This document shows, piece by piece, positions 547-22,917 of a stretch of DNA of 64,000 nucleotides (within the stretch, counting starts at the first letter, position 1; each line of letters begins with the position of its first letter). The translations under genes were made by a program, and so were the position numbers. The DNA comes from an uncultured Acidobacteriota bacterium (lineage in GTDB: Bacteria > Acidobacteriota > Vicinamibacteria > Vicinamibacterales > 2-12-FULL-66-21): NCBI GenBank assembly GCA_963748295.1, contig CAVVIH010000005.1, positions 459,500 through 523,499 of the forward strand, in the 5' to 3' direction. Below the pieces are notes generated by a model, which was given only the letters and a program-made list of their open reading frames with translations, did not search any database and was not told the DNA's origin.

Positions 547-587
547 ACGTCCTCCAAAGGATGAGAATCTTAGCAGATTCCCATCAC

Positions 588-616
588 ATTTAACGGTACC
601 GTTACTTTGACGTTAC
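588..616 (-). promoter_or_regulatory. Candidate Pho box: three 11-bp-phased heptamers GTAACGT-N4-GTAACGG-N4-GTTAAAT
   Basis: Read on the minus strand, the heptamers run 616->610, 605->599 and 594->588. The array ends 42 nt upstream of the DUF47 TTG start. It is the same motif family as the sites at 4598, 4667, 9517, 19668 and 22855. Confidence 0.45.
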
Positions 617-627
617 AAACTGGGGAC

Positions 628-664
628 AAAAAAACGGGACAGTCGCAATGAAAGCGACTGTCCC
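628..664 (-). terminator. Rho-independent terminator downstream of the TonB-dependent receptor gene
   Basis: Perfect 11-bp stem GGGACAGTCGC (636-646) / GCGACTGTCCC (654-664) with a 7-nt loop. On the minus strand it is followed by T7 (A7 at 628-634 on the plus strand). It lies 19 nt after the TAA stop at 683-685. Confidence 0.8.
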
Positions 665-682
665 GTAGAGCGCGCCGCGCGA

Positions 683-3600
683 TTAGAAGCGCAGGTTGAA
701 TCCGAACTGCATCACGCGAGGGCCGCCGACCGTTGCGGTGATCTTCCCGAAGTCGGTGCCCGCTTCGCCGATGACGTTTTCCGGCAGCGCGTAGTTGACG
801 GTGTTGAAGACGTTGAACACGTCCCAGCGCAGTTCGACGATCGACTGTGTCCCGCGATCCGGAAGGTCCGTGCGAGGCTCAGATCCACGCGCCGCTGCCA
901 GAATCCGCGCAGCACGTTACGGCCGAGGTTGCCGAATCCCTGATTGCCGGGATAGCCACCGGCGACGATGCTGGCCGAGCAGAGCACGGCCCGATTGAAC
1001 GCCGCCTCGGTCGGATCGCTACCGGCCTGCTGGAGGTCGTCGAGCGAGCCGCACAGGCTCGGACGGCCGAACGCCGCGCGGTAGAGCCCGCCCGAGCCGC
1101 GCACGAGATTGTTGTACTGCGCCGCGGTCTGGAGTTCCGGCTCCGCCGAGTAGATCGAGTACGGCAGGCCGGACTGCAGCTGGACGAAGCCCGAGAGCCG
1201 GAAGCCGCTGCAGAACGCCGGCAGCTCGTAGATGAAGCTCGTGCTCAACCGATGCGGCCGGTCGAAATCCGACAGCGCGTAGTTCGCGTCCAGGATCGCG
1301 CTGGTTGCCCTGCACCGCGAAGCCCACGTTCGGCACGTCCGGCTTGCCGCCGCCCGCGGTGCTGCCTGGATCGGCCGAGCTCGTGTCCTTCGAACGCGAG
1401 TAGGTGTACGAGACGTTGAACTGCAGGCCGTGCTGACATCCGCCGCAGGAAGTTCACCTGGAGCGAGTTGTAGAGCGAGCGACCCGTATTGGCGAGCAGC
1501 ACCGCCTCGGGAATATTGAACCCGAGAATCGGCGCCCGCGCTTCGAAGCGAATCACGGCGCCGCCGGCGTTCGCCAGGTTCAGATCCACCAACCCGCCGA
1601 GCGCGGCATTGGGGAACCCAAACGCGCGGCCGATTCCGCGCTCGCGCGCGGTGGCACCCCGCGTTGAGCGCGCCGTTCGGGCTGCCGGCGGCGACATACG
1701 CCTGGTTGAAACGCTCGAAGATGTGGTCCGGCACGTCCGGCGCGTTCAGGTCGTAGCCCTGGTTGAATGCCCGCGCCTCGAGCAGCTTCGTGCCCCTTGG
1801 CTGCCCACGTACCGCACTTCAAGCGACCATGTTGTGGCCGAGCTCGCGCTGCACGCCGAAGTTGTACTGCTGGATCCACGGCGCCTGGAGGTCGCGATCG
1901 ATGGCGCGGAACTCGAAGGTCTCGGCGACGTTGCCGCGGGTCGGCGGCCCGGTCGCCGGGTCGATGGGGTTGATGGTCCCATCGGCGCCGCGCGTCACCT
2001 GCGTGTTGTCGCGGATCTCGTACGTCCCGTTCGCCCCAGCCGTGCGCACGATCCGGTTCGGCAGGTACTGCGTTGAACGGGAATAGTTCGGATCCTGCTG
2101 CGAGAACGCGCTGCACGATCGGCACCGCGCGGCTCGGGGCCGTCACTTCGACTTCACGCAGGAACGGATAGTTCGAGAACACGGTATTGATGAACGCCGC
2201 CGACGGCCGGTCGAAGAAGATGCCGTAGCCGCCGCGGACGACCCACTTGCCGTCGGCGTCCGGCGTCCAGGCAAAGCCCGACGCGCGGTGCGACGTTGTT
2301 CCAGTCGTTCCCCTTCAGCGTGTGATTGTTGTCCGCCCTGATCGGACGCGTCGATCGCGCTGTCGATGGCGGCGAAGCCGGTCGTGCCTGACGTTCTTCG
2401 GCACGATGAACGCGGTCGCCGGATTCTCGGTGTTGGTGATCGCCTCGAAGTCGACGTTGCCGATGCGGCCATCGAGCTCCATCGGCCAGCCGAAGAACTC
2501 GTAGCGCACGCCGGCGTTGACCGTGAGCTTGCGGCCGACCTGCCAGTCGTCGGCCAGGAACAGGCTGAAGTCGTTGAAGCGGAACCGCTTGTCGGTCACG
2601 CCGAACTGCGTGTCGGCCTCGCGCGCCAGGCCGCGCAGCAGCATGCGTGAAGTTCTCGAACTTCTCGAACTCGGTCGCCTGCTCCTCGGGAAGGTTCGTG
2701 TCGAACTCGTTGCGGCGGTACTCGCCGCCCATCCGCAGCGGCGTGCGACCCGCGCGTCCAGCTCAGCGTGTCGCCGATCGTCCAGGTGCGCTGGCGGCGC
2801 TGATTGAACGAGTCGTTCGGCCCGCCAAACGAGAACCGCTCCATGATCGTGCCGGGCGCGCCGATGTAGTGGCCGAGGCGCCGCGTCGCCAGTCGACGTC
2901 ATCGAAGAAGGTCGCCGGATTCGGCACGCCGATCGACTGCGTTGGTCAGCGCGAGGAACGGATCGTCGAGCCGCCGGGTGTTATCGCAGGTAGAACACGC
3001 CGCCACGGATCTCGTTGACCTTGTTGCTCGCCGAGCACCCAGTTGTGCGACATGGCGGCCGTCGCGTTCCGGTCGGCGCGTCGAAGCGTAAACGGGAGGC
3101 CAGCGACGAGGGGTCGGGAAACGGATCCAAGCCTGGAAAGTCGGCGTAGAAGACCGTGCCGCTCAGCCGCTGGTTGTTCGTGAGCTGCGCGTCGAGCTTC
3201 GCCGTGTACTGGTCCTGCTCGAACTTCGCGGGGACGACGTTCCGCTGCCGCACGAGCGGGTTGCCGCCGACCGAGGAGCCGGCGACGCCGTCACGTCCGA
3301 CGACCGGCAGCCCGGCGCGCGGCGCCGGCAATGACGAAGTCGCCGGTGACCGGGTTGCGCAGGTTGAACAGACGACAGCGCGACGTCGGAGATGCACGCC
3401 GTGTCGGTCGGCACTGGTGCACTGCGCCTTCGGAATCGACGCGAGGATCCCGGGGTTCAGCGCGAGAACGCCTGCCAGAGATTCTCCTTCGTGCGGTCGC
3501 CCTGGATGAGACGCAAGCGCCTCCGGCAGTACGGTGATGCTGCTGGCCGTCGGGACGAATCCGGTCTCGGCATCGGTGCGCTGGTAACCGCCGAAGAAGA

Positions 3601-4517
3601 ACATGCGGTTGCGCCGAATCGGTCCGCCGATCGTCAGCCCGCCTTCGTTCCGCCGCGCTTTCGGCTTGTCGATGCCGTCCTTCTCGTAGAAGAAGTCGTT
3701 GCGAGTTGAAGTTCTCGTGCTGGACATTGAAGTGCAGCGCCGCCGCGGAGCTGATTCGTACCCGCTGCGCGTGATCAGCTGGAAGTTGCCGCCGCCCGAT
3801 CGGCCCGTGGACGCGTCGTACAGGCTGGTCTGCAGCTTGACCTCCTCGAGCATCTCGGGCGCGGGCGAAATGTTGTCGGACATCGATCCTTCGTTCGACG
3901 TGATGTTGGTCGCGTCGATGCCGTTGAAGAACAGGCTCGTGCTGGTCGTGCGCGTGCCGTTCACCGAAGGTGAGATGTTGCCGGTGCCGTTGATCAGGAC
4001 GGGCGGCAGGTCGGCGCTCACGCCCGCCTCGGCCGACAGCAGATGCGTGAAGCTGCGCGTCGAGGTCGGGACCTGCGTCAGCTCCTCGGCTGCGATCCGC
4101 CGGTATGTCGCTGCAGTGTTGGCCACGAGGATCGGTGCGTCGGCGCTGACCGTGACCTGCTCGGACAGCGTCCCCACTTCGAGCACCACCCGCAACTGGC
4201 GCGTGACGGCCGCTTCCACCTGAACGTCGCTGCGCGTGAGCTTCTTGAAACCGCTCAGCTCGAACGTGAGTTCGTATCGGCCCACAGGCAACGCGGCGAT
4301 GGTCCAGTCACCAGACGTGCCGGTCACGGTCGCTTGAGACAGACCGGTGTCGAGGTTCGTCGCGCGTACCGGTCGCGCCCGGGAGCACGCCGCCGCTCGG
4401 ATCGAGCACCGCTCCGGACAGTGATCCGGTGGCGCTGCTCTGCGCGACTGCCGCGATCGGCATCAACCCGATCAGCAACGCTGCCGCGCACAACCCTCTT
4501 CGAAACGTTTCACGCAT
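683..4517 (-). pseudogene. TonB-dependent receptor with an N-terminal carboxypeptidase-regulatory-like domain, broken by at least 10 frame slips
   Basis: The N-terminus is MRETFRRGLCAAALLIGLMPIAAVAQS (signal peptide), followed by GSLSGAVLDPSGGVLPGA and DWTIAALPVGRYELTFELSGFKK (CarboxypepD_reg-like). Plug/barrel motifs follow (NGTRTTSTSLFFNGIDATN, GGGNFQLITRSG, NDFFYEKDG). The C-terminus ends ...MQFGFNLRF with a terminal Phe. Recognisable segments are spread over all three minus frames (track ORFs 4308-4517, 2981-4327, 2596-2844, 2154-2732, 2315-2902, 2143-2472, 1580-2182, 1819-2049, 1746-1982, 1245-1697, 712-1734). Compensating slips also occur inside the long ORF near 3700-3770. Confidence 0.8.
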
Positions 4518-4597
4518 AGATCCTTTCCCCTCCTTGAACGCGCGAGCGCTGTAGTGATGACAACTGGTGAAGGCTATTGGCGGGGTGTGATCGGGAG

Positions 4598-4626
4598 ACT
4601 ACAGGTGCGTTACACGCGTGTTAACG
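4598..4626 (+). promoter_or_regulatory. Candidate Pho box (distal): ACTACAG-N4-GTTACAC-N4-GTTAACG
   Basis: Heptamers start at 4598, 4609 and 4620 with exact 11-bp phasing. They lie in the divergent region between the TonB receptor (start 4517) and pstS (start 4766). Confidence 0.5.
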
Positions 4627-4666
4627 CGGCGGAAGGCGGCAAAAGTTATTGAATCGTCACGCCGAG

Positions 4667-4706
4667 TTTACGCGATTGAAACATCCGCGTGACAAGCCTG
4701 AAACCT
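4667..4706 (+). promoter_or_regulatory. Candidate Pho box (proximal): TTTACGC-N4-GAAACAT-N4-GTGACAA-N4-GAAACCT
   Basis: Four heptamers at 4667, 4678, 4689 and 4700, each with AC at positions 4-5 and 11-bp phasing. The array ends 60 nt upstream of the pstS ATG, a position compatible with replacing a -35 element. Confidence 0.5.
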
Positions 4707-4765
4707 GCTCAGGACATCCTCCGGAAGGCGTGTTTCTTTCTCACGCCGCGCTTCAGGAGATGTGC

Positions 4766-5842
4766 ATGAGCTGTTACAAAGGCCTGTTGGTGCTAACCGC
4801 GGCGGTGGCTCTTTCCGCGTGCTCGGGAGATTCCAAGTCCGCTTCGAGCGGCACGGCGGCGGGCACGCCCGCGGGCGGCGGCGATATCGTTCAGATCAAC
4901 GGGATGGGCGCGACCTTCCCCAATCCGATCTACTCGAAGTGGTTCACGGAGTACAACCGGCTGCACCCGAACATCCAGATCAACTACCAATCGCAAGGGT
5001 CTGGAGCCGGGATCCGCGGTCTGACCAGCAAAACGGTGTTCTTCGGCGCCTCCGACCAGCCGATGAACGAGGAGCAACTGAAATCCGCCGGGGGCCCGGT
5101 GCTGCACCTGCCGACCGTCATGGGGGCCGTCGTGCCCGTCTACAACCTCCCGGGCGTCTCGCAGGAATTGAAGTTCAGCGGCCCGGTCCTCGCCGACGTC
5201 GTGCTCGGCAAAGTGACGAAGTGGAACGATCCCGCACTGGTGAAGCTCAACCAGGGGGTCAACCTGCCGGACACGCCGATCACGTTCGTTCACCGCTCAG
5301 ACGGGTCGGGCACGACGTTCATCTGGCTGGACTTCCTGGGGAAGGTCTCGCCAGCGCTCAAGCAGAAGGTCGGCGCCAATTCCTCCGTCAGCTGGCCGGT
5401 CGGCGTCGGCGGCAAGGGCAACGAAGGTGTCGCCGGCCTCGTGTCGCAGACGCCGGGCTCGCTCGGCTACGTCGAGCTGATTTACGCGCTGCAGAACAAG
5501 ATCGCCTACGGCGCGGTGCAGAACAGCGGCGGGGCGTTCGTCAAGCCAACCATCGAGTCGGTGACCGCGGCCGCGGAGGCGGCGGCGAGCAACATGCCGG
5601 AAGACTTCCGCGTGTCGATTACGAATCCTCCCGGCGCATCCTCCTATCCGATCGCGTCGTTCACCTGGATACTCATGTACGAGAACGCGGACGACAAGCA
5701 GAAGTCCAAGGTCATGGTCGATTTCATGAAGTGGGCGCTCACCGACGGGCAACAGCCCGCGCGTGAGATCGGGTATGCCCCCCTGCCCAAGAACGTGGTC
5801 GATCTGGAAATGAAAGCGCTCAGCAGGATTCAGGTGCAGTAG
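4766..5842 (+). CDS. pstS: Phosphate ABC transporter substrate-binding lipoprotein PstS
   Basis: Track ORF 4649-5842. I prefer the ATG at 4766 (GGAG at 4756-4759), giving MSCYKGLLVLTAAVALSACSG with an LSAC lipobox. PstS motifs are present: GATFPNPIYSKWF, YQSQGSGAGI, HRSDGSGTTF. Confidence 0.93.
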   Translation: MSCYKGLLVLTAAVALSACSGDSKSASSGTAAGTPAGGGDIVQINGMGATFPNPIYSKWFTEYNRLHPNIQINYQSQGSGAGIRGLTSKTVFFGASDQPMNEEQLKSAGGPVLHLPTVMGAVVPVYNLPGVSQELKFSGPVLADVVLGKVTKWNDPALVKLNQGVNLPDTPITFVHRSDGSGTTFIWLDFLGKVSPALKQKVGANSSVSWPVGVGGKGNEGVAGLVSQTPGSLGYVELIYALQNKIAYGAVQNSGGAFVKPTIESVTAAAEAAASNMPEDFRVSITNPPGASSYPIASFTWILMYENADDKQKSKVMVDFMKWALTDGQQPAREIGYAPLPKNVVDLEMKALSRIQVQ

Positions 5843-5860
5843 GACACGGAGGCGAACGAG

Positions 5861-6802
5861 TTGCGACGCGACGAACTGATCTTCCGCGGCGGGACGGGTG
5901 CGATTGCTCTGCTGCTGATCGTCGTGGTCGTGGCGATCGGCGGCGAGCTGGCGCGCCAGTCGATGCTGTCGATCGAGCATTTCGGGTGGCAGTTCTGGCA
6001 GACGGATGTGTGGGATCCGGTCGCCGGCCAGTTCGGCGCCCGCCCGTTCATCTGGGGCACGCTGTATTCATCGGTGCTCGCGCTCCTGATTGCCGCACCG
6101 ATTTCGCTCGGAATTGCCATCTACATCTCCGAATTGTGCCCGGCGTGGCTGCAGCGCCCGCTGGTGTTTCTCACCGAGCTGCTCGCCGCCATTCCCTCGA
6201 TCGTTTACGGGCTGTGGGGCATCTTCGTCCTGGTACCGTTCGTCCGGCAGCTCCAGATCGCGACGCCGGACTGGATGCGATCGATCCCGCTCTTCAGCGG
6301 GCCGCCGCTCGGCGTCGGCATGCTGTCCGCGGGACTGATCCTCGCGATCATGGTGATTCCGTTCAGCTCGTCGATCGCGCGCGAAGTGCTGCGGTCGGTG
6401 CCTCAGGCACAGCGTGAGGGCGCTTACGCGCTGGGGGCGACGCGGTGGGAAGCGATTCGCATGGCGCTTTTCTACGCGCGCACGGGGATCGTCGGCGCCG
6501 TCATGCTCGGCTTCGGCCGCGCGCTCGGCGAGACGATGGCGGTGACGATGGTGATCGGCAACAACCCGCAGATCAGCCTGTCGCTGTTTGCGCCGCAATA
6601 CACCATGGCCGCCGTGCTGGCGAACGAGTTCGCGGAGGCGGCCGAGGATCTCTACCTGCACGCGCTGGTCGAGATCGGCCTCGTGCTCTTCGTGATCACG
6701 CTGATCGTCAACGGCATTTCGCGGGCGTTCATCTGGTCGATGGGACGCCAGCGCCGGCCGCGCGCTTCGCGCGCCGCCTCCGCGGTAAGGGTTGGAGCCT
6801 GA
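5861..6802 (+). CDS. pstC: Phosphate ABC transporter permease PstC
   Basis: TTG start with GGAGG 8 nt upstream. It is a multi-TM protein with the PstC-type EAA loop (REGAYALGATRWE). Confidence 0.92.
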   Translation: MRRDELIFRGGTGAIALLLIVVVVAIGGELARQSMLSIEHFGWQFWQTDVWDPVAGQFGARPFIWGTLYSSVLALLIAAPISLGIAIYISELCPAWLQRPLVFLTELLAAIPSIVYGLWGIFVLVPFVRQLQIATPDWMRSIPLFSGPPLGVGMLSAGLILAIMVIPFSSSIAREVLRSVPQAQREGAYALGATRWEAIRMALFYARTGIVGAVMLGFGRALGETMAVTMVIGNNPQISLSLFAPQYTMAAVLANEFAEAAEDLYLHALVEIGLVLFVITLIVNGISRAFIWSMGRQRRPRASRAASAVRVGA

Positions 6803-7652
6803 CGTGCGGAATCAGATTCGCCGCTTCGTCTCGCACGCGGTGGTGGTCCTGTGCGGCCTGTCCGTCCTCCTCGCGCTGATCCCGCTCGCGCTCGTTCTGT
6901 TCTACGTGATCTCGCAGGGCGTGTCGTCGCTCAGCTGGGCGTTCTTCACAGAGATGCCGCGCCCTGTCGGCGAGGCCGGCGGCGGCATGGCGAACTCGAT
7001 CGCCGGCACGCTCATCGTCGTCGCCATCGGCGCGTTGTTCGCGATTCCGGTCGGCGTCGTCAGCGGGATCTACGCGGCTGAATACGCCGGCACCAGGCTC
7101 GCCGGCAGCGTCCGGTTCGCCGCAGATACCCTCAACGGCGTCCCGTCGATTGTCATCGGCGTGTTCGTGTATGGAATCGCCGTGCTCCCGTTCAGGCGCT
7201 TCTCAGCGCTCGCTGGCGGCCTGGCGTTGGGCGTCATGATGATTCCGCTCATCATGCGAACGACGGAAGAGCTGCTGCGCCTCGTGCCGACGACGTTGAA
7301 GGAGGGCGCGTTGGCGCTCGGCGCCACGCGCGGCCGCGCGGTCTTCTCGGTCGTGCTGCCGGCCGCCCTGCCCGGTATCGTGACCGGTGTCCTCCTGGCC
7401 CTCTCCAGGATCGCCGGGGAAACCGCGCCGCTGCTGTTCACTTCGTTCAACAACCGGTTCTTCACGACCGACGTCAGCCAACCCATCTCGACGCTGACCG
7501 TGCAGGTGTACACCTACGCCATTTCCCCCTATCAGGACTGGCACCGCCAGGCGTGGGCGGGCGCCCTCGTGCTGGTTCTCATCGTCTTCACCTGCTCGCT
7601 TCTCGCGCGTCTCGCCACCGCGAGAATGGAACGGCTGAGGCGAGGCGCCTGA
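6792..7652 (+). CDS. pstA: Phosphate ABC transporter permease PstA
   Basis: Contains the EAA loop LKEGALALGATRGRAVFSVVLP. An alternative GTG start at 6804 (GGAG 7 nt upstream) is equally plausible. No pstB follows it. Confidence 0.92.
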   Translation: MEPDVRNQIRRFVSHAVVVLCGLSVLLALIPLALVLFYVISQGVSSLSWAFFTEMPRPVGEAGGGMANSIAGTLIVVAIGALFAIPVGVVSGIYAAEYAGTRLAGSVRFAADTLNGVPSIVIGVFVYGIAVLPFRRFSALAGGLALGVMMIPLIMRTTEELLRLVPTTLKEGALALGATRGRAVFSVVLPAALPGIVTGVLLALSRIAGETAPLLFTSFNNRFFTTDVSQPISTLTVQVYTYAISPYQDWHRQAWAGALVLVLIVFTCSLLARLATARMERLRRGA

Positions 7653-7656
7653 CGGT

Positions 7657-8155
7657 TCAGGACTTCCCGATTTCCTTCAGCCGGTGCTGAAGCGCGAGGC
7701 CCGACAGCTTGTCGAGTGGCAGGCTGGCGAAGAGTTCTATGCGCCTTCGCAGAACCAGGAACGCCTCGCGGAAGGCTCTGCGCTTCTCCTCATCAGTGCC
7801 AGTCACCGCCGCCGGATCCGGCACGCCCCAGTGCGCGGTCATCGGCTGCCCGGGCCAGAAGGGGCACGTCTCGCCTGCCGCCTGATCGCAGACCGTGATC
7901 ACGAAGTCCAGCGGCGGGGCGCCAGGCTTCGCGAATTCGTTCCAGCTCTTGCTCTTCAATCCCGTCGTCGAAAGCTTCTGTCGCTGCAGCTCCGCGATCG
8001 CCAGCGGGTGCGGCTCTCCCTTCGGATGGCTGCCGGCGCTGAACGCGCGGAACTTGCCGCCGCCGATGGCCGGATGGTTCATCGCCGATTCCGCCAGGAT
8101 CGACCTGGCGGAATTCCCGGTGCAAACGAAGAGTACGTTGAATACGACGGGACAT
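7657..8155 (-). CDS. arsC: Arsenate reductase, LMW-PTPase (thioredoxin-coupled) type; frame slip at codon 2-3
   Basis: The reading frame gives PVVFNVLFVCTGNSARSILAESAMNHPAIGGGKFRAFSAGSHP...VITVCDQAAGETCPFWPG, with the CTGNSARS P-loop. The only start (ATG 8155) is 1 nt out of frame across the G3 run 8149-8151. The track therefore shows only 7657-8082. Confidence 0.8.
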
Positions 8156-8169
8156 GATGCCCTCCCGGC

Positions 8170-8991
8170 CTATGCCAGCAACGGCTTTCGCGCACGCACG
8201 AACGCGCTTGCGAACTTGCCTTCGACCGCCTCGCCGATCGCATCGACGTCGATGCCGGCGTCGCCGAGGAACTGCCGCGCGTCGTTGACGCCGTAAACCC
8301 GCCAGGGCTCGACCTCGATGCCTTCGAAGCCGGCGTCGTCGAGCAGCCTTTGGTACTCCTCCTCGTGCAGCGCGCCGGCGACGCAGCCGACCCACAGCTC
8401 CATGTTGCGCCGGACTTCCGCCGGCACCTCGCCGCGGACGACGACGTCCGACACCGCGAAGCGGCCGCCCGGCTTCAGCACGCGAAACGCCTCGCGAAGG
8501 ACCTGTCCTTTGTCCGCCGACAGGTTGATCACGCAGTTCGAGATGACGACGTCGATCGAGGCGTCGGGCAACGGGATGTTCTCGATCTCGCCTTTGAGAA
8601 ACTCGACGTTGGCGGCGCCCGCCTTCTGCTGATTCTCGCGTGCGAGCGCCAGCATCTCGTCGGTCATGTCGAGGCCATAGACTTTTCCCTCCGGGCCGAC
8701 GCGACGCGCCGACAGGAACACGTCGATGCCGCCGCCGCATCCGAGATCCAGCACGGTCTGCCCCGGCTCGAGGGCGATGAGCGCAGTCGGATTCCCGCAG
8801 CCGAGCGAGGCATCAACGGCTTCCTTCGGCAGCGCGTCGGTCTCGTCGCTGGCGTAGAGATCCGATGTGATCGGATCGGCGCACCCGCACGACGTCCCAC
8901 AACAGCCGCCCTTGTCCGCTCCCGATCTGGCGCGGCGCGCAGCCTCCCCATACTTCTGTTGAATCGTTTCCTTCAAACCCTGCTCACTCAT
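8170..8991 (-). CDS. arsM: Arsenite S-adenosylmethionine methyltransferase
   Basis: Has N-terminal Cys pairs ([10 protein letters not shown]), the SAM motif [12 protein letters not shown], and the GCGNP and VISNCVINL motifs typical of ArsM. Confidence 0.88.
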
Positions 8992-9005
8992 GGCTGACTC
9001 CTTTG

Positions 9006-9031
9006 TATATATTCGCTATTGCGAATATATA
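9006..9031. promoter_or_regulatory. Candidate ArsR operator: perfect 11-bp inverted repeat TATATATTCGC-tatt-GCGAATATATA
   Basis: The arms 9006-9016 and 9021-9031 are exact reverse complements. The site lies in the 94-bp AT-rich divergent region between arsM and arsR. A second weaker inverted repeat, ATTATAT (9049-9055) / ATATAAT (9070-9076), lies nearby. Confidence 0.6.
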
Positions 9032-9085
9032 GAGCGTAGCCTGGCTGGATTATATCTGTCAATGACGAATATAATATGAGCCACA

Positions 9086-9490
9086 ATGGCTCCTGAAAAA
9101 GACCTGCTCTCGCTCGAAACCGTGCTCAAGGCCGTCGCCGACCGCACCCGGCTGCGGATCGTCCGGCTGCTGCTCGCGGGGGAGGTATGCGTCTGCGATA
9201 TCCACGAGAGCCTCGGCATCCCCCAGCCCAAGGCGTCGCGCCACCTGGCCTATCTGCGGCGAACGGGCCTGGTCGACGCCCGAAAGGATGGGCTTTGGGT
9301 GCACTACCGGCTGGCGCGCCTCGACGATCCGGTGCTGCAGGGCGTGCTGGACTCCGTCGCCCATGCCGTAGGACACCTGCGGACGCCGGCGCGTGACCTG
9401 CGGCGGCTGGCGAGGCGGATCGAGCTCACGCCCGCTGAGCCGGGGAACGAGTCCGGCTCCTGCTGCTCGCCCCTCCGCGAGGGTCGCTGA
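9086..9490 (+). CDS. arsR: ArsR/SmtB family metalloregulator
   Basis: Contains LKAVADRTRLRIVRLLLAGEVCVCDIHESLGIPQPKASRHLAYLRRTGLV: a wHTH with the CVC metalloid-binding motif. It is divergent from arsM-arsC. Confidence 0.88.
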   Translation: MAPEKDLLSLETVLKAVADRTRLRIVRLLLAGEVCVCDIHESLGIPQPKASRHLAYLRRTGLVDARKDGLWVHYRLARLDDPVLQGVLDSVAHAVGHLRTPARDLRRLARRIELTPAEPGNESGSCCSPLREGR

Positions 9491-9516
9491 CAGAATTCGC
9501 GTGGCGAGTCGCGTTC

Positions 9517-9556
9517 GTAACCCAGAATTAACCAGTGCGTCACCCCGCGGAAACCC
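9517..9556 (+). promoter_or_regulatory. Candidate Pho box / autoregulatory site: GTAACCC-N4-TTAACCA-N4-GTCACCC-N4-GAAACCC
   Basis: Four heptamers at 9517, 9528, 9539 and 9550 with exact 11-bp phasing. The array ends 31 nt upstream of the response-regulator ATG at 9588. Confidence 0.5.
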
Positions 9557-9587
9557 ATGACCGATAACCTCTTGTTCGGTTTACCTC

Positions 9588-10349
9588 ATGGAGATACGCG
9601 TGAACGACGCCAGAACGCCGCAACCGGCCGCGCCCGTCGCCGCGGCAGCCGTGAGCAGACCACGGCGCGTCCTCGTCGTGGAAGACGAGCAGGACATCGC
9701 CGGGTTGATCAAACACGCGCTCGAGCGATCGGGTGAGGGCACCGTCGAGATCGTCAGCACCGGAGACGCGGCGCTCCGCGCGGTAACCGAGCAGCCGCCG
9801 GATCTCGTCATCCTGGATCTGAACCTGCCGGTGCTGAGCGGCACCGAGGTGTGCCGCATCCTGCGAGGACGCCCGAGCACCGCGAACATTCCCATCATCA
9901 TGCTCTCGGCGCGCACGGCCGAAACCGATCGCGTCTCGGGCCTCGACCTCGGCGCCGACGATTACGTCACGAAGCCGTTCAGCTTGCGCGAGCTTGCGGC
10001 GCGCGTCAGAGCAGTCCTCCGGCGGCGGCAGCAGGGCGACTCCGCGGCGAGCACAACGAACCTCTACACGGGAGAGCACCTCGTCGCGGACTTCGATGCC
10101 GTCGCCATCAGCGTGGACGGCACCCCCGTGCGGCTCACACGCCGCGAGTTCGAGCTGCTCAAGTTTCTCGTGGAGAACCGGAACCGCGTGCTGTCGCGGG
10201 ACCGGCTGCTGGAACGCGTGTGGGGCTACGAGCGCTTCATCGAAACGCGTTCGGTGGACGTGCACGTGGGGCGTCTGCGCGCCAAGCTGGGGCCCGCCGG
10301 GCAGCAGATCGAGACCGTGGTCGGGCTCGGTTATCGATTCATCGACTGA
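9588..10349 (+). CDS. OmpR/PhoB-family response regulator (REC plus winged-helix trans_reg_C); no adjacent histidine kinase
   Basis: The receiver domain reads RVLVVEDEQDIAGLI...DLVILDLNLPVLSG...DDYVTKPFSLRELAARV. The C-terminal domain reads LTRREFELLKFLVENRNRVLSRDRLLERVWGY...VDVHVGRLRAKL...GLGYRF. Confidence 0.9.
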   Translation: MEIRVNDARTPQPAAPVAAAAVSRPRRVLVVEDEQDIAGLIKHALERSGEGTVEIVSTGDAALRAVTEQPPDLVILDLNLPVLSGTEVCRILRGRPSTANIPIIMLSARTAETDRVSGLDLGADDYVTKPFSLRELAARVRAVLRRRQQGDSAASTTNLYTGEHLVADFDAVAISVDGTPVRLTRREFELLKFLVENRNRVLSRDRLLERVWGYERFIETRSVDVHVGRLRAKLGPAGQQIETVVGLGYRFID

Positions 10350-10359: not shown

Positions 10360-10593
10360 TCAGTGGGCTTCGTTCAGCGCGCCGACCGGCGACTGCCAAC
10401 CCGCGTCCTCGAGCTCCGACACCCGCCGACGGATCGCTGACAGCGCCCGCTCGACACGATGCCAGTCGGTATAGTGGACGCGCCGGACGACGTGGCTGTC
10501 CTGCTCCTCGCGGAATTCCCATCCGATGCCACCGGCTTCGGAAACGATGAACCGTCGAGTATGCCCCGCTTGAATCAGCTCTTTTGCAAACAT
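10360..10593 (-). CDS. Hypothetical small protein (77 aa)
   Basis: The ORF has coding-like composition and is convergent with the response regulator (10-nt gap). It opens onto an AT-rich divergent region. I recognise no family. Confidence 0.4.
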   Translation of the reverse strand: MFAKELIQAGHTRRFIVSEAGGIGWEFREEQDSHVVRRVHYTDWHRVERALSAIRRRVSELEDAGWQSPVGALNEAH

Positions 10594-10659
10594 CGTCCTG
10601 GTTCCGTGAAGAAGATTGCTTTGGCACCTTCTTTTTATCCCAGGACCGGGGCGCCGGCT

Positions 10660-10676
10660 GTAAATACTGTGTAAAT
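10660..10676 (+). promoter_or_regulatory. Direct repeat GTAAAT-N5-GTAAAT (11-bp phasing) in an AT-rich divergent region
   Basis: GTAAAT occurs at 10660-10665 and 10671-10676. GTTCCGTGA also occurs twice (about 10607 and 10717). The site lies between the two small divergent ORFs. Confidence 0.3.
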
Positions 10677-10787
10677 TACTCGACGGCAGATGACATAACT
10701 CACATGTTATCAGCTAGTTCCGTGATAGTCGTCGACTTATTACGTGAAGTTTATGTTGACGACATTCTGCGTTAATGGACCCGCGCC

Positions 10788-11033
10788 ATGCTCCTCAGGG
10801 GACGGGAGGCGGCCATGGAAATGCGGTTTGACGATGCGGTTCAGCTGATTCGTCTGGAGTATCTGGAAATGCCGGGTATGGCGCTCACCTACGAGCAGGC
10901 CCGCCGTTTGTGGAATCTTCCGGCCGATCTGTGTCAGCGTGCCCTGGACGATCTCCTCGTCTCGCGCTTCCTCACGCTGACGCGCCACGGCGCCTACGTC
11001 CGCTGCGACGCCGGCACCCGGCACGTCACATGA
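10788..11033 (+). CDS. Hypothetical small protein (about 70-81 aa), possibly wHTH-like
   Basis: ORF MLLRGREAAMEMRFDDAVQLIRLEYLEMPGMALTYEQARRLWNL...; the real start may be the internal MEM. The family is not recognised. Confidence 0.4.
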   Translation: MLLRGREAAMEMRFDDAVQLIRLEYLEMPGMALTYEQARRLWNLPADLCQRALDDLLVSRFLTLTRHGAYVRCDAGTRHVT

Positions 11034-12144: not shown

Positions 12145-13260
12145 GTGATCCCCATTCGAACCGTCGCCCTGCTCTTCCTGCGTCTCGGCGCCACGGCATT
12201 CGGCGGCCCCGCCGCACATATCGCGCTCCTGCACCACGAGGTGGTGGCGCGCCGCAGATGGCTGACCGACGACGAATTCGGCGAGCTGCTGGCGCTGACC
12301 AACCTGATTCCGGGACCCAATTCGACGGAGATGGCGATCCACGTCGGCCGGCGCGTCGCCGGCTGGTGGGGGTTCGTTCTCGCCGGCGTCTGTTTCATCG
12401 TCCCCGCCGCGGTGATGGTGGCATGCCTGGCGGTGCTCTACGTCCACTACGGCCGCACACCCGATGCGCGGGCGGTGATGTCGGGGGTCGCTCCGGTGAT
12501 GCTGGCGGTGATCGCGCATGCGAGCGTCACGATCGGCAGGTCGCAGTTGCGAGGGCCCTTCGCATGGCTCACGGCCATTGCCGCTGCTGGCCTCGCCATC
12601 GCCGGAATCCACGAGCTCGCGCTCCTGCTTGGCGCGGGCCTGCTGTCGGTTGCGGCGAGGCGGACGGGAGTGCTCGCCGTGCTCGCGGCGAGCGGCGGGC
12701 TCATGAGCGCGCAGGCTGCCCAACCGGTGCAGGCAGCGGTTCCACTGACCGGGCTGTCGCTGTTCTTCCTCAAGGTCGGTTCCGTGCTCTTCGGCAGCGG
12801 GTACGTGCTCGTCGCGTTCCTGCGCGCCGATCTCGTGGAACGGTGGCGCTGGCTGACCGATCAGCAGCTCGTCGACGCGATCGCGGTCGGCCAGATGACG
12901 CCGGGACCGGTGTTCACGACCGCCACGTTCATCGGCTACGTGCTGCGCGGCGCGCCGGGCGCCGTGCTCGCGACGATCGCGATCTTTCTCCCGGCGTTCA
13001 TCTTCGTCGCGCTGACGCAGCCGCTGATCCCGCGCCTGCGCGCCTCCGCCGCCGCCAGCGCGTTCCTCAACGGCGTGACCGCGGCGTCCATCGGTCTCAT
13101 CGCCGCGGTCGCGGCGATGCTCGTTCCGGTCGTGCTGACGACCGCGGCCCAGTCAATCGCCGCGCTCGCGGCGCTGCTGGCGCTGCTCAGATGGCGCATC
13201 AACCCGTCATGGCTTTTGGTGGCCGGCGCCCTCCTCGGCTGGGCGGGAGTGTTCGGGTAG
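12145..13260 (+). CDS. chrA: Chromate transporter ChrA (two CHR domains)
   Basis: FLRLGATAFGGPAAHIALLHHEVVARRRWLTDDEFGELLALTNLIPGPNS in the first half and FGSGYVLVAFLRADLVERWRWLTDQQLVDAIAVGQMTPGPV in the second half. These are the classic duplicated CHR motifs. Confidence 0.9.
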   Translation: MIPIRTVALLFLRLGATAFGGPAAHIALLHHEVVARRRWLTDDEFGELLALTNLIPGPNSTEMAIHVGRRVAGWWGFVLAGVCFIVPAAVMVACLAVLYVHYGRTPDARAVMSGVAPVMLAVIAHASVTIGRSQLRGPFAWLTAIAAAGLAIAGIHELALLLGAGLLSVAARRTGVLAVLAASGGLMSAQAAQPVQAAVPLTGLSLFFLKVGSVLFGSGYVLVAFLRADLVERWRWLTDQQLVDAIAVGQMTPGPVFTTATFIGYVLRGAPGAVLATIAIFLPAFIFVALTQPLIPRLRASAAASAFLNGVTAASIGLIAAVAAMLVPVVLTTAAQSIAALAALLALLRWRINPSWLLVAGALLGWAGVFG

Positions 13261-13314
13261 GCAGACCTGAAGGTCTGCGCTACGTGCGCTCGTAGTGCAG
13301 GCCTTCAGGCCTGC
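13261..13314. repeat. Two related REP-like hairpins: GCAGACC-TGAA-GGTCTGC and GCAGGCC-TTCA-GGCCTGC
   Basis: Perfect 7-bp stems at 13261-13278 and 13297-13314, directly after the chrA stop and before glgC. There is no T-tract. Confidence 0.6.
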
Positions 13315-13334
13315 CACGCTAAGATGGTGGACGC

Positions 13335-14591
13335 ATGAACGACGTCCTCACCCTGATCCTGGGCGGCGGCCGCGGCGCTCGCCTGTTCCCGCTCACGCAC
13401 ATGCGCTCGAAGCCGGCCGTGCCGCTCGGCGGCAAGTACCGGCTGATCGACATTCCGATCAGCAACTGTCTCCACGCGGGACTCAAGCAGATCTTCGTGC
13501 TGACGCAGTTCAACTCGGCGTCGCTCAACCGCCACGTCGCGCAGACCTACAGGCTCGACATGTTCTCCGGCGGCTTCGTCGAAGTGCTCGCCGCCGAGCA
13601 GACGCCCGAGAGCTCGGACTGGTTTCAGGGAACGGCCGATGCGGTGCGGCAGGCCGCGCGTCACTTCAGGGGCTACGACGCGGATCACTATCTGATTCTC
13701 GCGGGCGACCACCTCTACCGCATGGACTTCTGCGAGCTGATCGACTCGCACATCGAGGATGGCGCCGACATCACCATCGCGGCGCAGCCGGTGAGCCGCG
13801 CCGACGCGACCCAGATGGGCATCTTCCGCTTCGACACGCTGGGCCAGATCGCCGGCTTCGAGGAGAAGCCGAACGAGGCACGGCTCACCGAGATGGGCGG
13901 CAGCACGCCGAAAGGCGCCACCGTCGGCGCCACCGGGCCCGACAAGCCATTCGTGGCGTCGATGGGCATCTACGTGTTCTCGCGCGAGGTGCTGCTCGAT
14001 CTGCTCGAGCAGCCGGGCATCGACTTCGGCAAGGAAGTCATCCCGAAGGCGCTGAACACGATGCGGGTGAACCCGTTCATCTTCCGCGGCTACTGGGCGG
14101 ACGTCGGCACCATCGAGGCGTTCTACGACGCCAACATCCAGCTGACGCGGCGCGCGGCGCCGTTCAACTTCTTCCATCCGCGGCGGCCGATCTACACGCA
14201 CCAGCGTTTCCTGCCGCCGAGCCGCGCGCACGGCGCGCAGATCGATTCGTCGATCGTCGCCGAAGGGTGCTACCTCGATCGCTGCGAGGTGCGCGACTCG
14301 CTCGTCAGCATCCGCACGCAGATCGGCCAGGGCACGCGGGTGACGCGATCGGTGCTGCTCGGCGCCGACTTCTACGAAGAGGAGTCGGGCGCCCACGCGA
14401 CGCCGCTCGGCATCGGCCGCGACGTCGTCCTCGATCGCGTGATCGTGGACAAGAACGCGCGCATCGGCAACGGCGTGCGCCTGGTCAATGAGGCGAACGT
14501 GCGGGAGGCGGACGGCGACGGGTATTACATCCGCAACGGCATCATCATCGTTCCCAAGGGCGGCGTCATCGCGGACGGTCTGAGCGCGTAG
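13335..14591 (+). CDS. glgC: Glucose-1-phosphate adenylyltransferase
   Basis: LILGGGRGARLFPLTHMRSKPAVPLGGKYRLIDIPISNC, WFQGTADAV, plus a left-handed beta-helix C-terminus. 418 aa. Confidence 0.93.
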   Translation: MNDVLTLILGGGRGARLFPLTHMRSKPAVPLGGKYRLIDIPISNCLHAGLKQIFVLTQFNSASLNRHVAQTYRLDMFSGGFVEVLAAEQTPESSDWFQGTADAVRQAARHFRGYDADHYLILAGDHLYRMDFCELIDSHIEDGADITIAAQPVSRADATQMGIFRFDTLGQIAGFEEKPNEARLTEMGGSTPKGATVGATGPDKPFVASMGIYVFSREVLLDLLEQPGIDFGKEVIPKALNTMRVNPFIFRGYWADVGTIEAFYDANIQLTRRAAPFNFFHPRRPIYTHQRFLPPSRAHGAQIDSSIVAEGCYLDRCEVRDSLVSIRTQIGQGTRVTRSVLLGADFYEEESGAHATPLGIGRDVVLDRVIVDKNARIGNGVRLVNEANVREADGDGYYIRNGIIIVPKGGVIADGLSA

Positions 14592-14602
14592 CGCGGGTCG
14601 GG

Positions 14603-15772
14603 TTGCGATATACTCGTCGCCGCGTGCCCCGTTTCGGTCTTGTGCCGGGCCTCGCGCTCCTCGCAGCGCTGATTCCCGGGTCCCTTTCAGCTCAGACGCC
14701 CGCGGGCCCGACGTTCACCTTCGCGGGCTATCTCCAGACGCAGTACAACCGGCTGTCGGTCGGCGACACGTCCCACGATCGCGTCATCTTCCGCCGCGCG
14801 ATCGTCGGCGTCGAAGCGGAATTGAGCGATCGCTGGATGGGCGAGCTGCAGGCGGACATCGCGCCCGTCTCACTCAGCGAGCGGATCGAGATCCGCGATG
14901 CCTACCTCCGCTACACGGGACTGGCGCCTCGCGGCCTCACCTTCACGTTCGGCAATCAGAAGCTGCCCTTCGCGCGCAGCGTGCTGGTGTCGTCGGCGCG
15001 CCGCGGCTTGGTCGAGCGTCCGGTGACGGGTGAACGGGCATACGGCGCCTCCGGCCGCGCCATCGCCTTCAAGGTCGACGGCCGTGACGTCGATCACCTG
15101 CTGCTCTGGTCCGCCGCGGTCGCGTCCGTCCATCATGCGCCGACGAGCGACCAGATTCGCCTCGACGGGCTGGCGACCTCGCGCGCCGACTGGAACGAAG
15201 GGGTGATGCTGGTAGGGCGCACGGAATGGCACCCGCGCGGCTTCGTGCCGCTCGAGCAGGGCGGGTTCGAGGTGAAGAAGACCATCGCGACGATCGGCGG
15301 CGGCGCGTATTACTGGGTCAACGACGGCGACAACAACCTCTTCACCATGGACGGCGCCAGCACGTCGCAGACCGCCGCCGATCTCGATCGCGCGACCGGC
15401 CTCGAACTGAGCGGCGGCGTGCGGGCGCCGCGGCTGTCGATCGACGCGGAGCTGCATCGCATCACCGGGCGCACGATCGATCCGGCCTTCACCGGCGGTC
15501 TGTACCACGCCGGCCGCACGCGCCTGATCAAGTCCTCGATCGAAGCGGGATACATGCTGGCGCCGCCGCACCTGGAATTGCTTGGCGGCGTCGAATCGCT
15601 CGACGTCGACGCCTACGATTCCGTCTCCTGGCGTCCCGCCGCCGGCGTCAACTGGTACGTCTACCGTCACAGGCTGAAGTTCCAATTCATGCAGCGCGAG
15701 ACGCTCAACGAGCTGGGCGTCCGCGGCGCGCACGGTCACGCGACGTACGTGCAGGCGCAGATCATGTTCTGA
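14603..15772 (+). CDS. Outer-membrane beta-barrel porin, phosphate-selective OprO/OprP-like
   Basis: Has a signal peptide (LALLAALIPGSLSAQ), alternating-hydrophobic strands, and a C-terminal YVQAQIMF. It starts 11 nt after the glgC stop. The family call is tentative. Confidence 0.55.
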   Translation: MRYTRRRVPRFGLVPGLALLAALIPGSLSAQTPAGPTFTFAGYLQTQYNRLSVGDTSHDRVIFRRAIVGVEAELSDRWMGELQADIAPVSLSERIEIRDAYLRYTGLAPRGLTFTFGNQKLPFARSVLVSSARRGLVERPVTGERAYGASGRAIAFKVDGRDVDHLLLWSAAVASVHHAPTSDQIRLDGLATSRADWNEGVMLVGRTEWHPRGFVPLEQGGFEVKKTIATIGGGAYYWVNDGDNNLFTMDGASTSQTAADLDRATGLELSGGVRAPRLSIDAELHRITGRTIDPAFTGGLYHAGRTRLIKSSIEAGYMLAPPHLELLGGVESLDVDAYDSVSWRPAAGVNWYVYRHRLKFQFMQRETLNELGVRGAHGHATYVQAQIMF

Positions 15773-16688: not shown

Positions 16689-17258
16689 ATGTTCTGCCTG
16701 ATACCTGCGCTACTCGCCGCGCTCGTCGTCGGCGTTGCGCCCGCGAGCCTGACGCCATCGCCGCGGTCGAGACCGCCGCTGCATGTCTATCGGGGCATCG
16801 CCCCCGAATACGAAGCGCTGTTGACCGCGCCCCAGCGCCGGCTGCGCGCAACAGACCCACGGATGCAGGCCTTGATCGCGGAGGGCCTCCGCCGCTCGCC
16901 GACCTTCGCGCAGCTGCTCGCCGACCTCGAGAAGACCGACCTCATTGCCTACGTCGAACGCATTCAAAACATGCCGGCGGTGATGTCGGGACGGCTGCTC
17001 TTCGTGTCGGCGTCGCCCGCGCAGCGGTACGTCCGCATTCAGTTGGGGACGGGCGGCACGAACGCGGACGCGATCGTCACGCTCGCGCACGAGCTGCAGC
17101 ACGCAATCGAGGTGGGGACGTCACCGGACGTGCGCGATCAGGAGGCGCTCGCCCGGCTGTACCAGCGGATTGGCCAGAACAGCCTGAGCGGGCATACTTA
17201 CGACACGGTCGCGGCGCAGTCTGCGGGCAAGCTGGTACGCCGGGAACTCGAGGGGTGA
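16689..17258 (+). CDS. Secreted HExxH-motif protein, paralog 2
   Basis: Starts MFCLIPALLAALVVGVAPAS. Contains ...IVTLAHELQHAIEVGTSPDVRDQEALARLYQRIG. It is collinear with paralog 1 over the whole length. I prefer the ATG at 16689, by analogy with the conserved leader/RBS of paralog 1. Confidence 0.6.
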   Translation: MFCLIPALLAALVVGVAPASLTPSPRSRPPLHVYRGIAPEYEALLTAPQRRLRATDPRMQALIAEGLRRSPTFAQLLADLEKTDLIAYVERIQNMPAVMSGRLLFVSASPAQRYVRIQLGTGGTNADAIVTLAHELQHAIEVGTSPDVRDQEALARLYQRIGQNSLSGHTYDTVAAQSAGKLVRRELEG

Positions 17259-18719: not shown

Positions 18720-18725
18720 GGTCGA

Positions 18726-19704
18726 TCAGCGGTGGGACGTACCAGCCGAGGCCTTCGACAGCGACGCGGCGCGCGCGGCGGACGATGACAGCTTCATCTT
18801 CAGCGGTCCGCGCGATTTGCGACGCCGCGCCACCTGAGGTGCGACGACTGCCTGGATGTCGTCGATCGCGGCCTGCAGCGCGCCGACGGTCGCGAGGTAG
18901 CGCGCATGCAGATGACGGCACTCCTCTTCGAGTTGCCGCGAGATGATTTCGAGGCCGCCCTCGCGCGCCGGATGCGCGCGGCGGCTGCGCCTGCACGGCG
19001 GCGACGTGCGTCTGCAGCACCTGCACGTCGTGCAGACGGCCGAGCGTGTCCTGCACCCGCTTGATGGTCCGCACCGCGTGAGTCGCCGCCTTCACGCCGG
19101 TCTCCCCGCCACTTCCGCCGCGTAACGCAGCTTCTTTGCCGCGATGCGCACCATGTGAAGCCGCTCGGCCTCGTACAACTGACCCGCGTCCGCGACTGCT
19201 GCGCGCAGTGCCTTGGATCGCTTCAGCAGGCGCTTCGAGAGCGCCTCACGCCAGTCGTCTGTTCCGGCCTGCTCGAGCGTCTGCGCCAGCGACGTGAGCC
19301 GCTTATCGAGCTTGTCGACGTTCACACGCCCGAGCCGCTTCAGCATCACCTCGCGACGGCGCTCCTGCTCCTTCATGACGTACGCGCGGACGTCTTCGAG
19401 GGCCAGACGGGGCACCCCTTCGCGCTTGACCAGTTCGTCGATCAGCGCCACCGTGACATCGAGCTCCCGGATCGCCCCGAGCGCGCCCGTAATCCTGCGG
19501 ATCTTCCGTCGCGCCTTGTCGGCTTTGCTGTCCTTCAGGCCGGTCGCGAGCACGGGCACGGCCTCGCGCAGCCGGCGCGAGGCCACCCGTGCCTGGTGAA
19601 CGCCAACCCCATTCCCTGCAGCAGCTTCCGCGAGATGGCGCTTCAGCGCCTGGCTGCGGCGGGCCAGTAACACGGTCGTTACAGGTGGGTTAACGCGGTT
19701 CATG
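18726..19704 (-). CDS. CHAD domain protein, second copy (two frame slips near 19100 and 18975)
   Basis: VHQARVASRRLREAV, MVRIAAKKLRYAAEVAG, then after a slip at a G4 run ETGVKAATHAVRTIKRVQDTLGRLHDVQVL, then a third frame LEIISRQLEEECRHLHARYLATV...SHR ending at 18726. The start is uncertain (ATG 19704 or a downstream GTG). Confidence 0.7.
19668..19696 (+). promoter_or_regulatory. Candidate Pho box: GTAACAC-N4-GTTACAG-N4-GTTAACG
   Basis: Heptamers at 19668, 19679 and 19690 with 11-bp phasing, about 125 nt upstream of ppx. The array overlaps the first codons of the CHAD ORF if ATG 19704 is used. Confidence 0.5.
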
Positions 19705-19819
19705 GTAGGATCGCGGCTCGACAAGACGTTGTGACATGGCTTCCAACCCCAGGTCAGCCAGTATATAACGGGCATATCACGCGGTTCCAACAGTTGAGCC
19801 GCCTCTCCCGCCCGCCCGC

Positions 19820-22854: not shown

Positions 22855-22883
22855 GTTACACAGAATTTACACGTGTGAAACTG
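22855..22883 (+). promoter_or_regulatory. Candidate Pho box: GTTACAC-N4-TTTACAC-N4-GAAACTG
   Basis: Heptamers at 22855, 22866 and 22877. The array starts 4 nt after the preceding stop and ends 35 nt before the pstB ATG. Confidence 0.5.
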
Positions 22884-22917
22884 GCGGGAAATCGCCGGCA
22901 GTTAGGCTGAATCTCGC

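Follow-up and report, generated by a model that had tools for sequence, protein, structure and literature searches.

Arrays of 11-bp direct repeats before the phosphate genes of an uncultured acidobacterium are predicted Pho boxes of a PhoB/RegX3-type regulator

This study concerns a stretch of 64,000 nucleotides from an uncultured Acidobacteriota bacterium (assembly GCA_963748295.1, contig CAVVIH010000005.1), referred to as the window, and the arrays of phased direct repeats that precede its phosphate genes. The G+C content of the window is 66.6%, and Pfam and NCBIfam matches place a phosphate island in its first 25 kb. The island begins on the minus strand with a DUF47/PhoU_div gene (1-546) and a gene coding for a TonB-dependent receptor with CarboxypepD_reg, Plug, and barrel domains (660-4517). 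These are followed on the plus strand by the first putative target operon, pstS-pstC-pstA (4760-7652, assigned by Pfam, with PstS matching TIGR00975 at 391.7 bits), and then by arsC and arsM (7657-8991, minus), arsR (9086-9490, plus), a response regulator gene of the OmpR/PhoB family (9588-10349, plus), and two small open reading frames (ORFs) on mixed strands (10360-11033). Further downstream lie chrA, glgC, and a Porin_O_P-like gene (12145-15772, plus), a CHAD - His_Phos_1 - CHAD gene group (17198-19703, minus), ppx (19820-21487, plus), two dTMP-kinase-like genes (to 22851, plus), the second putative target operon, pstB-phoU (22918-24436, plus; Pfam ABC_tran and PhoU), and gltA (24911-26197, plus). 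The remaining genes of the window, coding for Lon, a TPR peptidase, DUF4175, MTHFR, and others, have no phosphate link.

A preliminary description of this DNA had listed six arrays of heptamers, with A-C at positions 4-5, the consensus GTWACAC, and a spacing of exactly 11 bp. A check of the sequence found all six, the fifth starting at 19667 and not at 19668. The A-C core is present in most units, whereas GTTAACG (twice) and GTTAAAT have A-A, because they had been read on the wrong strand or in the wrong register. The real repeat unit is not the heptamer but an oriented hexamer, (G/T)T(A/T)ACA, arranged in direct head-to-tail repeats with an 11-bp period, and each site in the window contains two to five in-phase units. 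Since GTWAC is palindromic, the arrays can be read on either strand, and their orientation is fixed by the flanks and the -10 hexamer. The orientation of the units relative to the downstream gene was constant across 80 genomes. The six arrays were also not the full set, as a seventh at 10659-10675 had been missed.

The 80 genomes were represented by loci around PstS relatives, one per species and 1.31 Mb in total, labeled L001 and so on. By its PstS relatives, the window belongs to Acidobacteriota, and the nearest of them (63-72% identity) come from Vicinamibacteria- and Thermoanaerobaculia-type metagenome-assembled genomes (MAGs). Five further loci, L081-L085, were fetched with a 77-aa small protein of the island. 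The scans covered about 1.4 Mb in pieces of genomes. Arrays of this kind might be a chance or compositional by-product of the A+T-richer intergenic DNA in a 67% G+C genome, and two counts in the window agree with such an origin. NNNAC x3 at period 11 was not significantly enriched (23 observed vs 16.4 +/- 2.9 expected), and this loose definition was dropped for that reason in favor of core-specific tests; GTWAC alone occurred at expectation (46 vs 47). However, the enrichment lies in the phasing and appears at period 11 only. GTWAM-N6-GTWAM gave 10 strand hits in the window compared with 0.07 in dinucleotide shuffles, and all 10 matches were intergenic and below 23 kb. KTAAC pairs were found 4 times at period 11 and 0 times at nearly all other periods in the window; in the 1.31 Mb of related loci they numbered 69 at period 11, 17 at 22, and 5 at 33, while most other periods gave 0-3. 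This spike with its harmonics at 22 and 33 bears out the exact spacing described earlier. Additionally, a ranking of 6-mers in the 1.5 kb upstream of pstS in the 80 genomes, made without the previously described motif, gave GTAACA, TGTAAC, and TAACAC as the top three strand-specific words, with GTAACA counted 69 times against 4.9 expected (z = 28.8).

A 57-column weight matrix was trained on 17 sites, all from the pstS-operon promoters of other genomes, and had the consensus A(T)TTAACA-N4-tGTAACA-N5-GtGAC-N6-GAAAC-N10-TAnnCT. Units 3 and 4, the -10 hexamer, the flanks, and positional clustering played no part in choosing these sites. In the window, the full matrix matched before the TonB-dependent receptor gene (4570-4626, minus, 35.9 bits, the best of the window), pstB (22853-22909, plus, 34.1 bits), the response regulator gene (9515-9571, plus, 30.7 bits), and pstS (4665-4721, plus, 22.2 bits), while the maximum on the shuffled window was 12.6 bits (best of 40 shuffles). 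A 2-unit sub-matrix, used for sites of deviating geometry, reached the region threshold of at least 12 bits in 6 of the 23 intergenic regions, namely those of the sites first described and 10594-10814. Its highest score in the window was at 10658-10677 (minus, 23.4 bits), and it also matched at 19665-19684 (plus, 17.2 bits), 19676-19695 (minus, 16.8 bits), and 599-618 (minus, 12.6 bits).

The arrays are restricted to these promoters. As had been stated before, the remaining intergenic regions of the window, including those of like composition, lack them and score at most 5.9 bits with the 2-unit matrix. Coding sequence does not carry arrays at a similar density either, with no match of at least 10 bits across the 59 kb of coding sequence in the window. 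The claim that an array precedes every phosphate gene block nearly holds, the exception being the Porin_O_P-like gene (14603-15772): upstream of this gene and of glgC there is no array, and the maximum score is -2.6 bits. In the 1.31 Mb of related loci, the full matrix found 81 clusters of at least 14 bits, compared with 1-2 in shuffles, and 47 of at least 20 bits (17 of them the training sites), compared with 0-1. The matrix scan suggested in the preliminary description gave the result predicted there, with arrays upstream of pst-type genes in the window and in the related loci. Furthermore, the position and orientation of the arrays are kept even where PstS identity between the genomes is as low as 57-72%. 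The period-11 spike, the region specificity, and the shuffle comparison refute a chance or compositional origin, the probability of which we regard as negligible.

Four promoters, those of the TonB receptor, pstS, regulator, and pstB genes, share one canonical geometry, with unit starts at 0, 11, 22, and 33 followed by a -10-like hexamer at 48, 15 nt after the start of unit 4. The same constant 15-nt distance between unit 4 and TAnnCT is present in the cross-genome matrix. When the -10 hexamer is set at -12 to -7, the proximal pair of units starts at about -38 and -27, and a promoter search of the window sites found no complete sigma-70 promoter with a -35 element at the arrays. The receptor promoter (4571..4624, minus) consists of TTAACA 4624-4619, GTAACG 4613-4608, GTAGTC 4602-4597, and ATCACA 4591-4586 with the -10 hexamer TAGCCT 4576-4571, before the receptor ATG at 4517. 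Orthologous receptors in five loci have the same array (L002, 35.5 bits; L003, 21.4; L010, 19.6; L012, 20.9; L085, 23.3). The array at 4598-4626 had been placed between the receptor gene and pstS. A plus-strand reading of it as a pstS box was rejected, since it scores 9.2 bits against 35.9 bits for the minus strand, where TAGCCT is also correctly spaced. The array is assigned to the receptor gene, and hence two divergent boxed promoters share the 242 bp between that gene and pstS.

The pstSCA promoter (4656..4720, plus) has the units GTCACG 4656, TTTACG 4667, GAAACA 4678, GTGACA 4689, and GAAACC 4700 and the -10 hexamer CATCCT 4715-4720, with the pstS ATG at 4760. Its TTWAC/GAAACA/GTGAC/GAAAY subtype is found as the second array before the porin-pstS operons of L006, L012, L020, L022, and L041. 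The pstB-phoU promoter (22855..22908, plus) contains GTTACA 22855, TTTACA 22866, GAAACT 22877, and GAAATC 22888, followed by TAGGCT 22903-22908 and the pstB ATG at 22918, and arrays also precede the pstB orthologues of L012 (24.5 bits) and L037 (16.4 bits). In the response-regulator promoter (9517..9570, plus), the units are GTAACC 9517, TTAACC 9528, GTCACC 9539, and GAAACC 9550, and the -10 hexamer is TAACCT 9565-9570. The DUF47(-pit) promoter (564..616, minus) has GTAACG 616-611, GTAACG 605-600, GTTAAA 594-589, and a degenerate TGGGAA 583-578; GAATCTGCTAAGATTCT follows the three good units, and the -10 region CTGCTAAGATTCT offers TAAGAT 572-567 or GATTCT 569-564. The DUF47 gene starts at TTG 546, preceded by GGAGGA, and three phased units together with GAATCTGCTAAGATTC are kept in L001, L002, L004, L010, and L012. 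Just 3' of the TonB receptor gene, a G+C-rich hairpin at 630-660, GGGACAGTCGC-aatgaaa-GCGACTGTCCC, resembles a terminator that sets the receptor gene apart from the DUF47 promoter.

The arrays are conserved phylum-wide, and most of the 80 loci have a two-unit pattern ahead of the pst operon, at a fixed offset. In Terriglobia-type loci, TGTAACA-N4-TGTAACA immediately precedes pstS, on the same strand. In Vicinamibacteria-type loci, TTAACA-N5-GTAACA-N5-GTGAC-N6-GAAAC is located about 1.3 kb upstream of pstS and precedes an outer-membrane porin gene that heads the pstS operon. Matches in the related loci outside the training set were upstream of orthologues of the regulator (seven genomes, 23-47 bits), the TonB receptor (five genomes), pstB, and pstC, and included second promoters of porin-pstS operons.

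Several side observations were made in these loci. In L006, L010, L012, L020, L022, and L041, two same-strand four-unit arrays, 85-93 bp apart and each with a -10-like hexamer, sit about 1.3-1.4 kb upstream of pstS before the porin-pstS operon of the Vicinamibacteria type, and these may be tandem promoters or may enclose a short unannotated transcript. The Porin_O_P-like gene of the window starts 12 bp after glgC, and L081 keeps the order chrA-glgC-porin. The phosphate porin is split from pstS in the lineage of the window, whereas that of its relatives heads the boxed pstS operon. In addition, TTTACA-N5-TTTACA and related phased units stand before pst operons in L043 (Nitrospiria) and in L077 and L080 ("delta proteobacterium" MAGs), and therefore the TTWACA-type box probably extends well outside Acidobacteriota.

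The regulator encoded at 9588-10349 has a receiver domain and a winged helix (Pfam Response_reg and Trans_reg_C, 2.4e-28 and 2.5e-28) and is PhoB-like, below the curated threshold for PhoB equivalogs. Its recognition helix is ETRSVDVHVGRLR, and that of E. coli PhoB is presumably EDRTVDVHIRRLR. The closest solved structure is that of M. tuberculosis RegX3 (2oqr, E = 5e-52), and SenX3-RegX3 is the mycobacterial phosphate two-component system (PMC4415409). The array before the regulator gene is kept upstream of its orthologues (72-82% identity) in at least 10 other genomes (L001, 32.0 bits; L002, 29.3; L003, 27.4; L006, 23.3; L012, 24.0; L018, 29.4; L041, 46.7; L082, 38.6; L083/L084, 31.2), and an array at this place implies autoregulation, as would be expected of a Pho regulator. 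The gene lies 2 kb downstream of pstA in the window and directly after pstA in L082-L084.

On these grounds, the arrays are very probably Pho boxes of a PhoB/RegX3-type regulator. We propose that the tandem head-to-tail sites would bind a phosphorylated winged-helix regulator of this type, most likely the product of 9588-10349, with one monomer per (G/T)T(A/T)ACA hexamer; since the units recur every 11 bp, all monomers would lie on one face of the helix. The strong distal pair (TTAACA, GTAACA) probably nucleates binding, and the two units of the weaker proximal pair, GTGAC and GAAAC, start 26 and 15 nt before the -10 hexamer. As the proximal pair takes the position of the missing -35 element, it could recruit RNA polymerase to the TAnnCT -10 hexamer, as E. 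coli PhoB does. The bound regulator would activate rather than repress, and phosphate limitation would switch on high-affinity uptake by pstSCA and pstB-phoU, together with the TonB-dependent outer-membrane receptor, DUF47(-pit), the regulator itself, and the conserved 77-aa protein, with ppx as a probable further member. This interpretation survives every computational test that was run.

The acidobacterial sites agree at the level of sequence with every feature that defines a Pho box. In the established definition, Pho boxes consist of 11-nt direct-repeat units with 7 conserved and 4 variable nucleotides, bound head-to-tail by effector domains (PMC4415409), and the E. coli box ends about 10 bp upstream of the -10 hexamer and replaces the -35 element (PMC4415409, PMC1906773). 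The sites described here are similar to those of E. coli PhoB in their 11-bp direct repeats, with at least two units per box, often two boxes per promoter, and the box in the place of the -35 element, as well as in their proximal units (about -38/-27 here and about -40/-29 in E. coli), the predicted autoregulation of the regulator gene, and pstS as prime target. They differ in the core, (G/T)T(A/T)ACA instead of CTGTCAT, and in the strong distal and weak proximal units of the Vicinamibacteria-type promoters. Moreover, the regulator gene of the window is unpaired with phoR, and pstSCA and pstB-phoU are separately boxed operons, 15 kb apart.

The SphR box of cyanobacteria, CTTAACCT, consists of at least three tandem 8-bp repeats with 3-bp linkers and was found by comparative genomics (PMC1906773). 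It shares with the acidobacterial sites the 11-bp period, the three or more tandem units, and the way in which it was defined, and its core TTAAC(C) is nearly identical to the regulator units GTAACC/TTAACC/GTCACC/GAAACC of the window. However, SphR belongs to another phylum, and the acidobacterial units favor a 3' ACA and a G at position 1 of the inner units, within a four-unit architecture with a fixed TAnnCT -10 hexamer. The PhoP box of B. subtilis, TT(A/T/C)ACA with a period of about 11 bp, likewise occurs in multiple tandem repeats, and its hexamer, which we take to be the same word as TTAACA, would correspond to unit 1. Gram-positive PhoP promoters often need at least four repeats and internal sites. 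In Streptomyces, the PHO boxes of PhoP are built of 11-nt direct-repeat units of GTTCACC (PMC2275107, PMC4415409). The likeness includes the 11-nt direct-repeat units, the variable number of units per operator, and the high G+C content of a soil bacterium; the core is GTTCACC there and GTAACA here, and complex operator classes have been described there. Judged by their letters, the nearest words are the SphR box and the presumed B. subtilis PhoP hexamer; CTGTCAT of E. coli and GTTCACC of Streptomyces resemble the units less closely. The earlier statement that the repeats are closest to the Gram-positive types was fair, but the SphR box is at least as close.

Genuine Pho boxes need not be bound by the product of the nearby gene. 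Another regulator of the OmpR/PhoB family encoded elsewhere could be the binder, with the gene at 9588-10349 merely a target, and the abundance of OmpR-family paralogues, the missing kinase neighbor, and the family score under the PhoB equivalog cut-off fit such an arrangement. However, orthologues of the regulator lie beside or inside the pst cluster in many genomes, always with the array present, and the best family match of the regulator is PhoB and its best structure match RegX3. We therefore consider a binder encoded elsewhere unlikely, and the protein of 9588-10349 is probably the one that binds the arrays, a part of the Pho-box explanation that we hold with somewhat less confidence than the whole.

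It is very unlikely that the regulator of these arrays responds not to phosphate but to arsenate, envelope stress, general starvation, or another such signal. The ars cluster (arsC, arsM, arsR) between pstA and the regulator gene would agree with such a response, but the targets found across genomes are those of the classical Pho regulon (pstS, pstC, pstB-phoU, phosphate-type porin, DUF47-pit), and in L085 an array adjoins an alkaline phosphatase gene. Moreover, no array is present in the ars promoter region (8992-9085), which scores 5.9 bits at most and has a palindrome of its own. This A+T-rich divergent arsM-arsR region (39% G+C) contains the near-perfect palindrome TATATATTCGCTATTGCGAATATATA (9006-9032) and a further copy of CGAATATAAT (9066-9078). 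These probably form the operator of ArsR and have no relation to the Pho arrays.

Several observations weigh against the Pho-box interpretation or parts of it. The best NCBIfam model of the regulator, PhoB TIGR02154, was matched at 229.7 bits with a cut-off of 296.2, and NF053854 at 216.5 bits with a cut-off of 270. No histidine kinase (phoR) gene adjoins the regulator gene in the window, where its downstream neighbor is the convergent gene of the 77-aa protein, and this arrangement is repeated in L082-L084. With a score under the PhoB cut-off and no adjacent PhoR, the protein is a putative Pho regulator. The training sites of the matrix had been selected by a two-unit pattern taken from the motif of the preliminary description, and the matrix is thus not fully independent of it. 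Three sites depart from the canonical geometry, as the -10 hexamer is located 27 nt after unit 2 at the small-protein site, 17 nt after unit 3 at the ppx site, and 11-14 nt after the degenerate unit 4 at the DUF47 site. Because their geometry differs, these sites score at most 9.7 bits on the 57-column matrix, and they were judged by the 2-unit matrix and by conservation. The array at 19667 lies inside the CHAD reading frame and is partly kept in L012 only, being absent from L020, L022, and L018. Finally, several frameshifts break the reading frames of the TonB receptor (660-4517) and DUF47 (1-546) genes, which are either pseudogenes or affected by indel errors of the assembly; since two target genes contain frameshifts, 1-nt indel errors in the array spacing are possible.

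The array near ppx is the most ambiguous of the sites. It had been described as lying between the CHAD operon and ppx. It is present, on the plus strand at 19667..19711, with GTAACA 19667, GTTACA 19678, GTTAAC 19689, and TGgTAGGAT (TAGGAT 19706-19711), and it overlaps codons 4-12 of the CHAD gene (ATG 19703), the N-terminus of which, MNRVNPPVTTVLL, aligns with those of relatives. Its minus-strand spelling is TTAACC/GTAACG/GTTACT, and on the full matrix it scores 6.8 bits (plus) and 9.7 bits (minus). Rare codons spell the array (GTT 9%, CCA 7%, CCT 7.5%, GTA 3.5%, and TTA 0.4% within their families), an argument for selection at the level of the DNA sequence. It is a probable binding site of uncertain effect.

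As a minus-strand promoter of the CHAD operon, 19667-19693 was rejected, since there is no -10-like hexamer at the canonical distance and the array lies downstream of the CHAD start codon; the minus-strand reading was retained as a possible roadblock. Between CHAD and ppx, a conserved (A/G)TATAT(A/C) is found at 19762-19772 of the window and at the equivalent places in L012, L020, and L022. Read as TATACT or TATAAT on the minus strand, this element precedes the CHAD start by about 60 nt and is probably the -10 hexamer of the CHAD operon, in which case the array would fall downstream of the CHAD transcription start. It is conceivable, if somewhat doubtful, that 19667-19693 is no working activator site but a decoy or intragenic site, a roadblock that represses the CHAD operon, or a lineage-specific accident. 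Its place within the CHAD codons downstream of the conserved minus-strand TATA(A/C)T element, its absence from three relatives, and its low full-matrix scores would all suit such a site, and PhoB of E. coli is reported to have many intragenic sites that are transcriptionally inert (PMC9934606). On the other hand, the three units of the array are in phase and reach about 17 bits with the 2-unit matrix, five of its codons are rare, with TTA making up 0.4% of Leu codons, and on the ppx strand a conserved TGgTAGGAT follows unit 3 after 17 nt.

The seventh site (10632..10675, minus; TTTACA 10675-10670, TTTACA 10664-10659, 21 nt, TAAAAA 10637-10632) is located upstream of a gene coding for a conserved small protein of 77 aa (10593..10360, minus), a member of a family of 72-77 aa. 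In this promoter, the downstream unit is one helical turn further from the -10 hexamer than in the canonical geometry. TTTACA-N5-TTTACA-N21-TA(C/A)AAA precedes the homologous gene at every locus checked (L001, L003, L006, L012, and L081-L085), and L081-L085 also have regulator, pstS, and receptor arrays at 23-39 bits. The protein has no Pfam or NCBIfam match. Its family comprises 469 cluster representatives with an invariant DWHRVERA motif, and the AF2 model shows four strands and one helix (pLDDT 85.9), for which Foldseek found no significant fold match in the PDB (best E-value 0.13). The array makes the protein a candidate member of the Pho regulon, and across the loci it behaves like a core member. 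As the gene is usually, indeed nearly always, convergent with the kinase-less gene of the PhoB-like regulator, the protein might modulate the regulator or PstSCAB/PhoU signaling. That this core member of the acidobacterial Pho regulon is a new accessory factor of phosphate signaling and not a scavenging enzyme is a speculative suggestion and rather unlikely to be correct in full. The second small ORF of this region (10815-11033, plus) codes for 72 aa and belongs to no family, and its own upstream region (10737-10793) scores 8.0 bits. Its sole homologue in the fetched loci, in L018 (~260), is 42% identical and lies behind a 27-bit array.

The mechanism proposed here is that of an ordinary Pho box and adds no new mechanism for PhoB-family regulators. 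Such a box has apparently not yet been described for Acidobacteriota, as no description was found in the literature searched. Acidobacteriota are among the most abundant soil bacteria and are mostly uncultured, and phosphorus is often limiting in soil. If validated, the operator signature, (G/T)T(A/T)ACA at 11 bp, with four units and TAnnCT in the Vicinamibacteria type and TGTAACA-N4-TGTAACA in Terriglobia, would make the phosphate-starvation regulon of these bacteria readable from genomes and MAGs. It also nominates members of the regulon that were not obvious, namely the CarboxypepD_reg-type TonB-dependent receptor, the regulator itself, and the widespread small protein, and the 72-77-aa family to which the last belongs is the most interesting by-product of this work.

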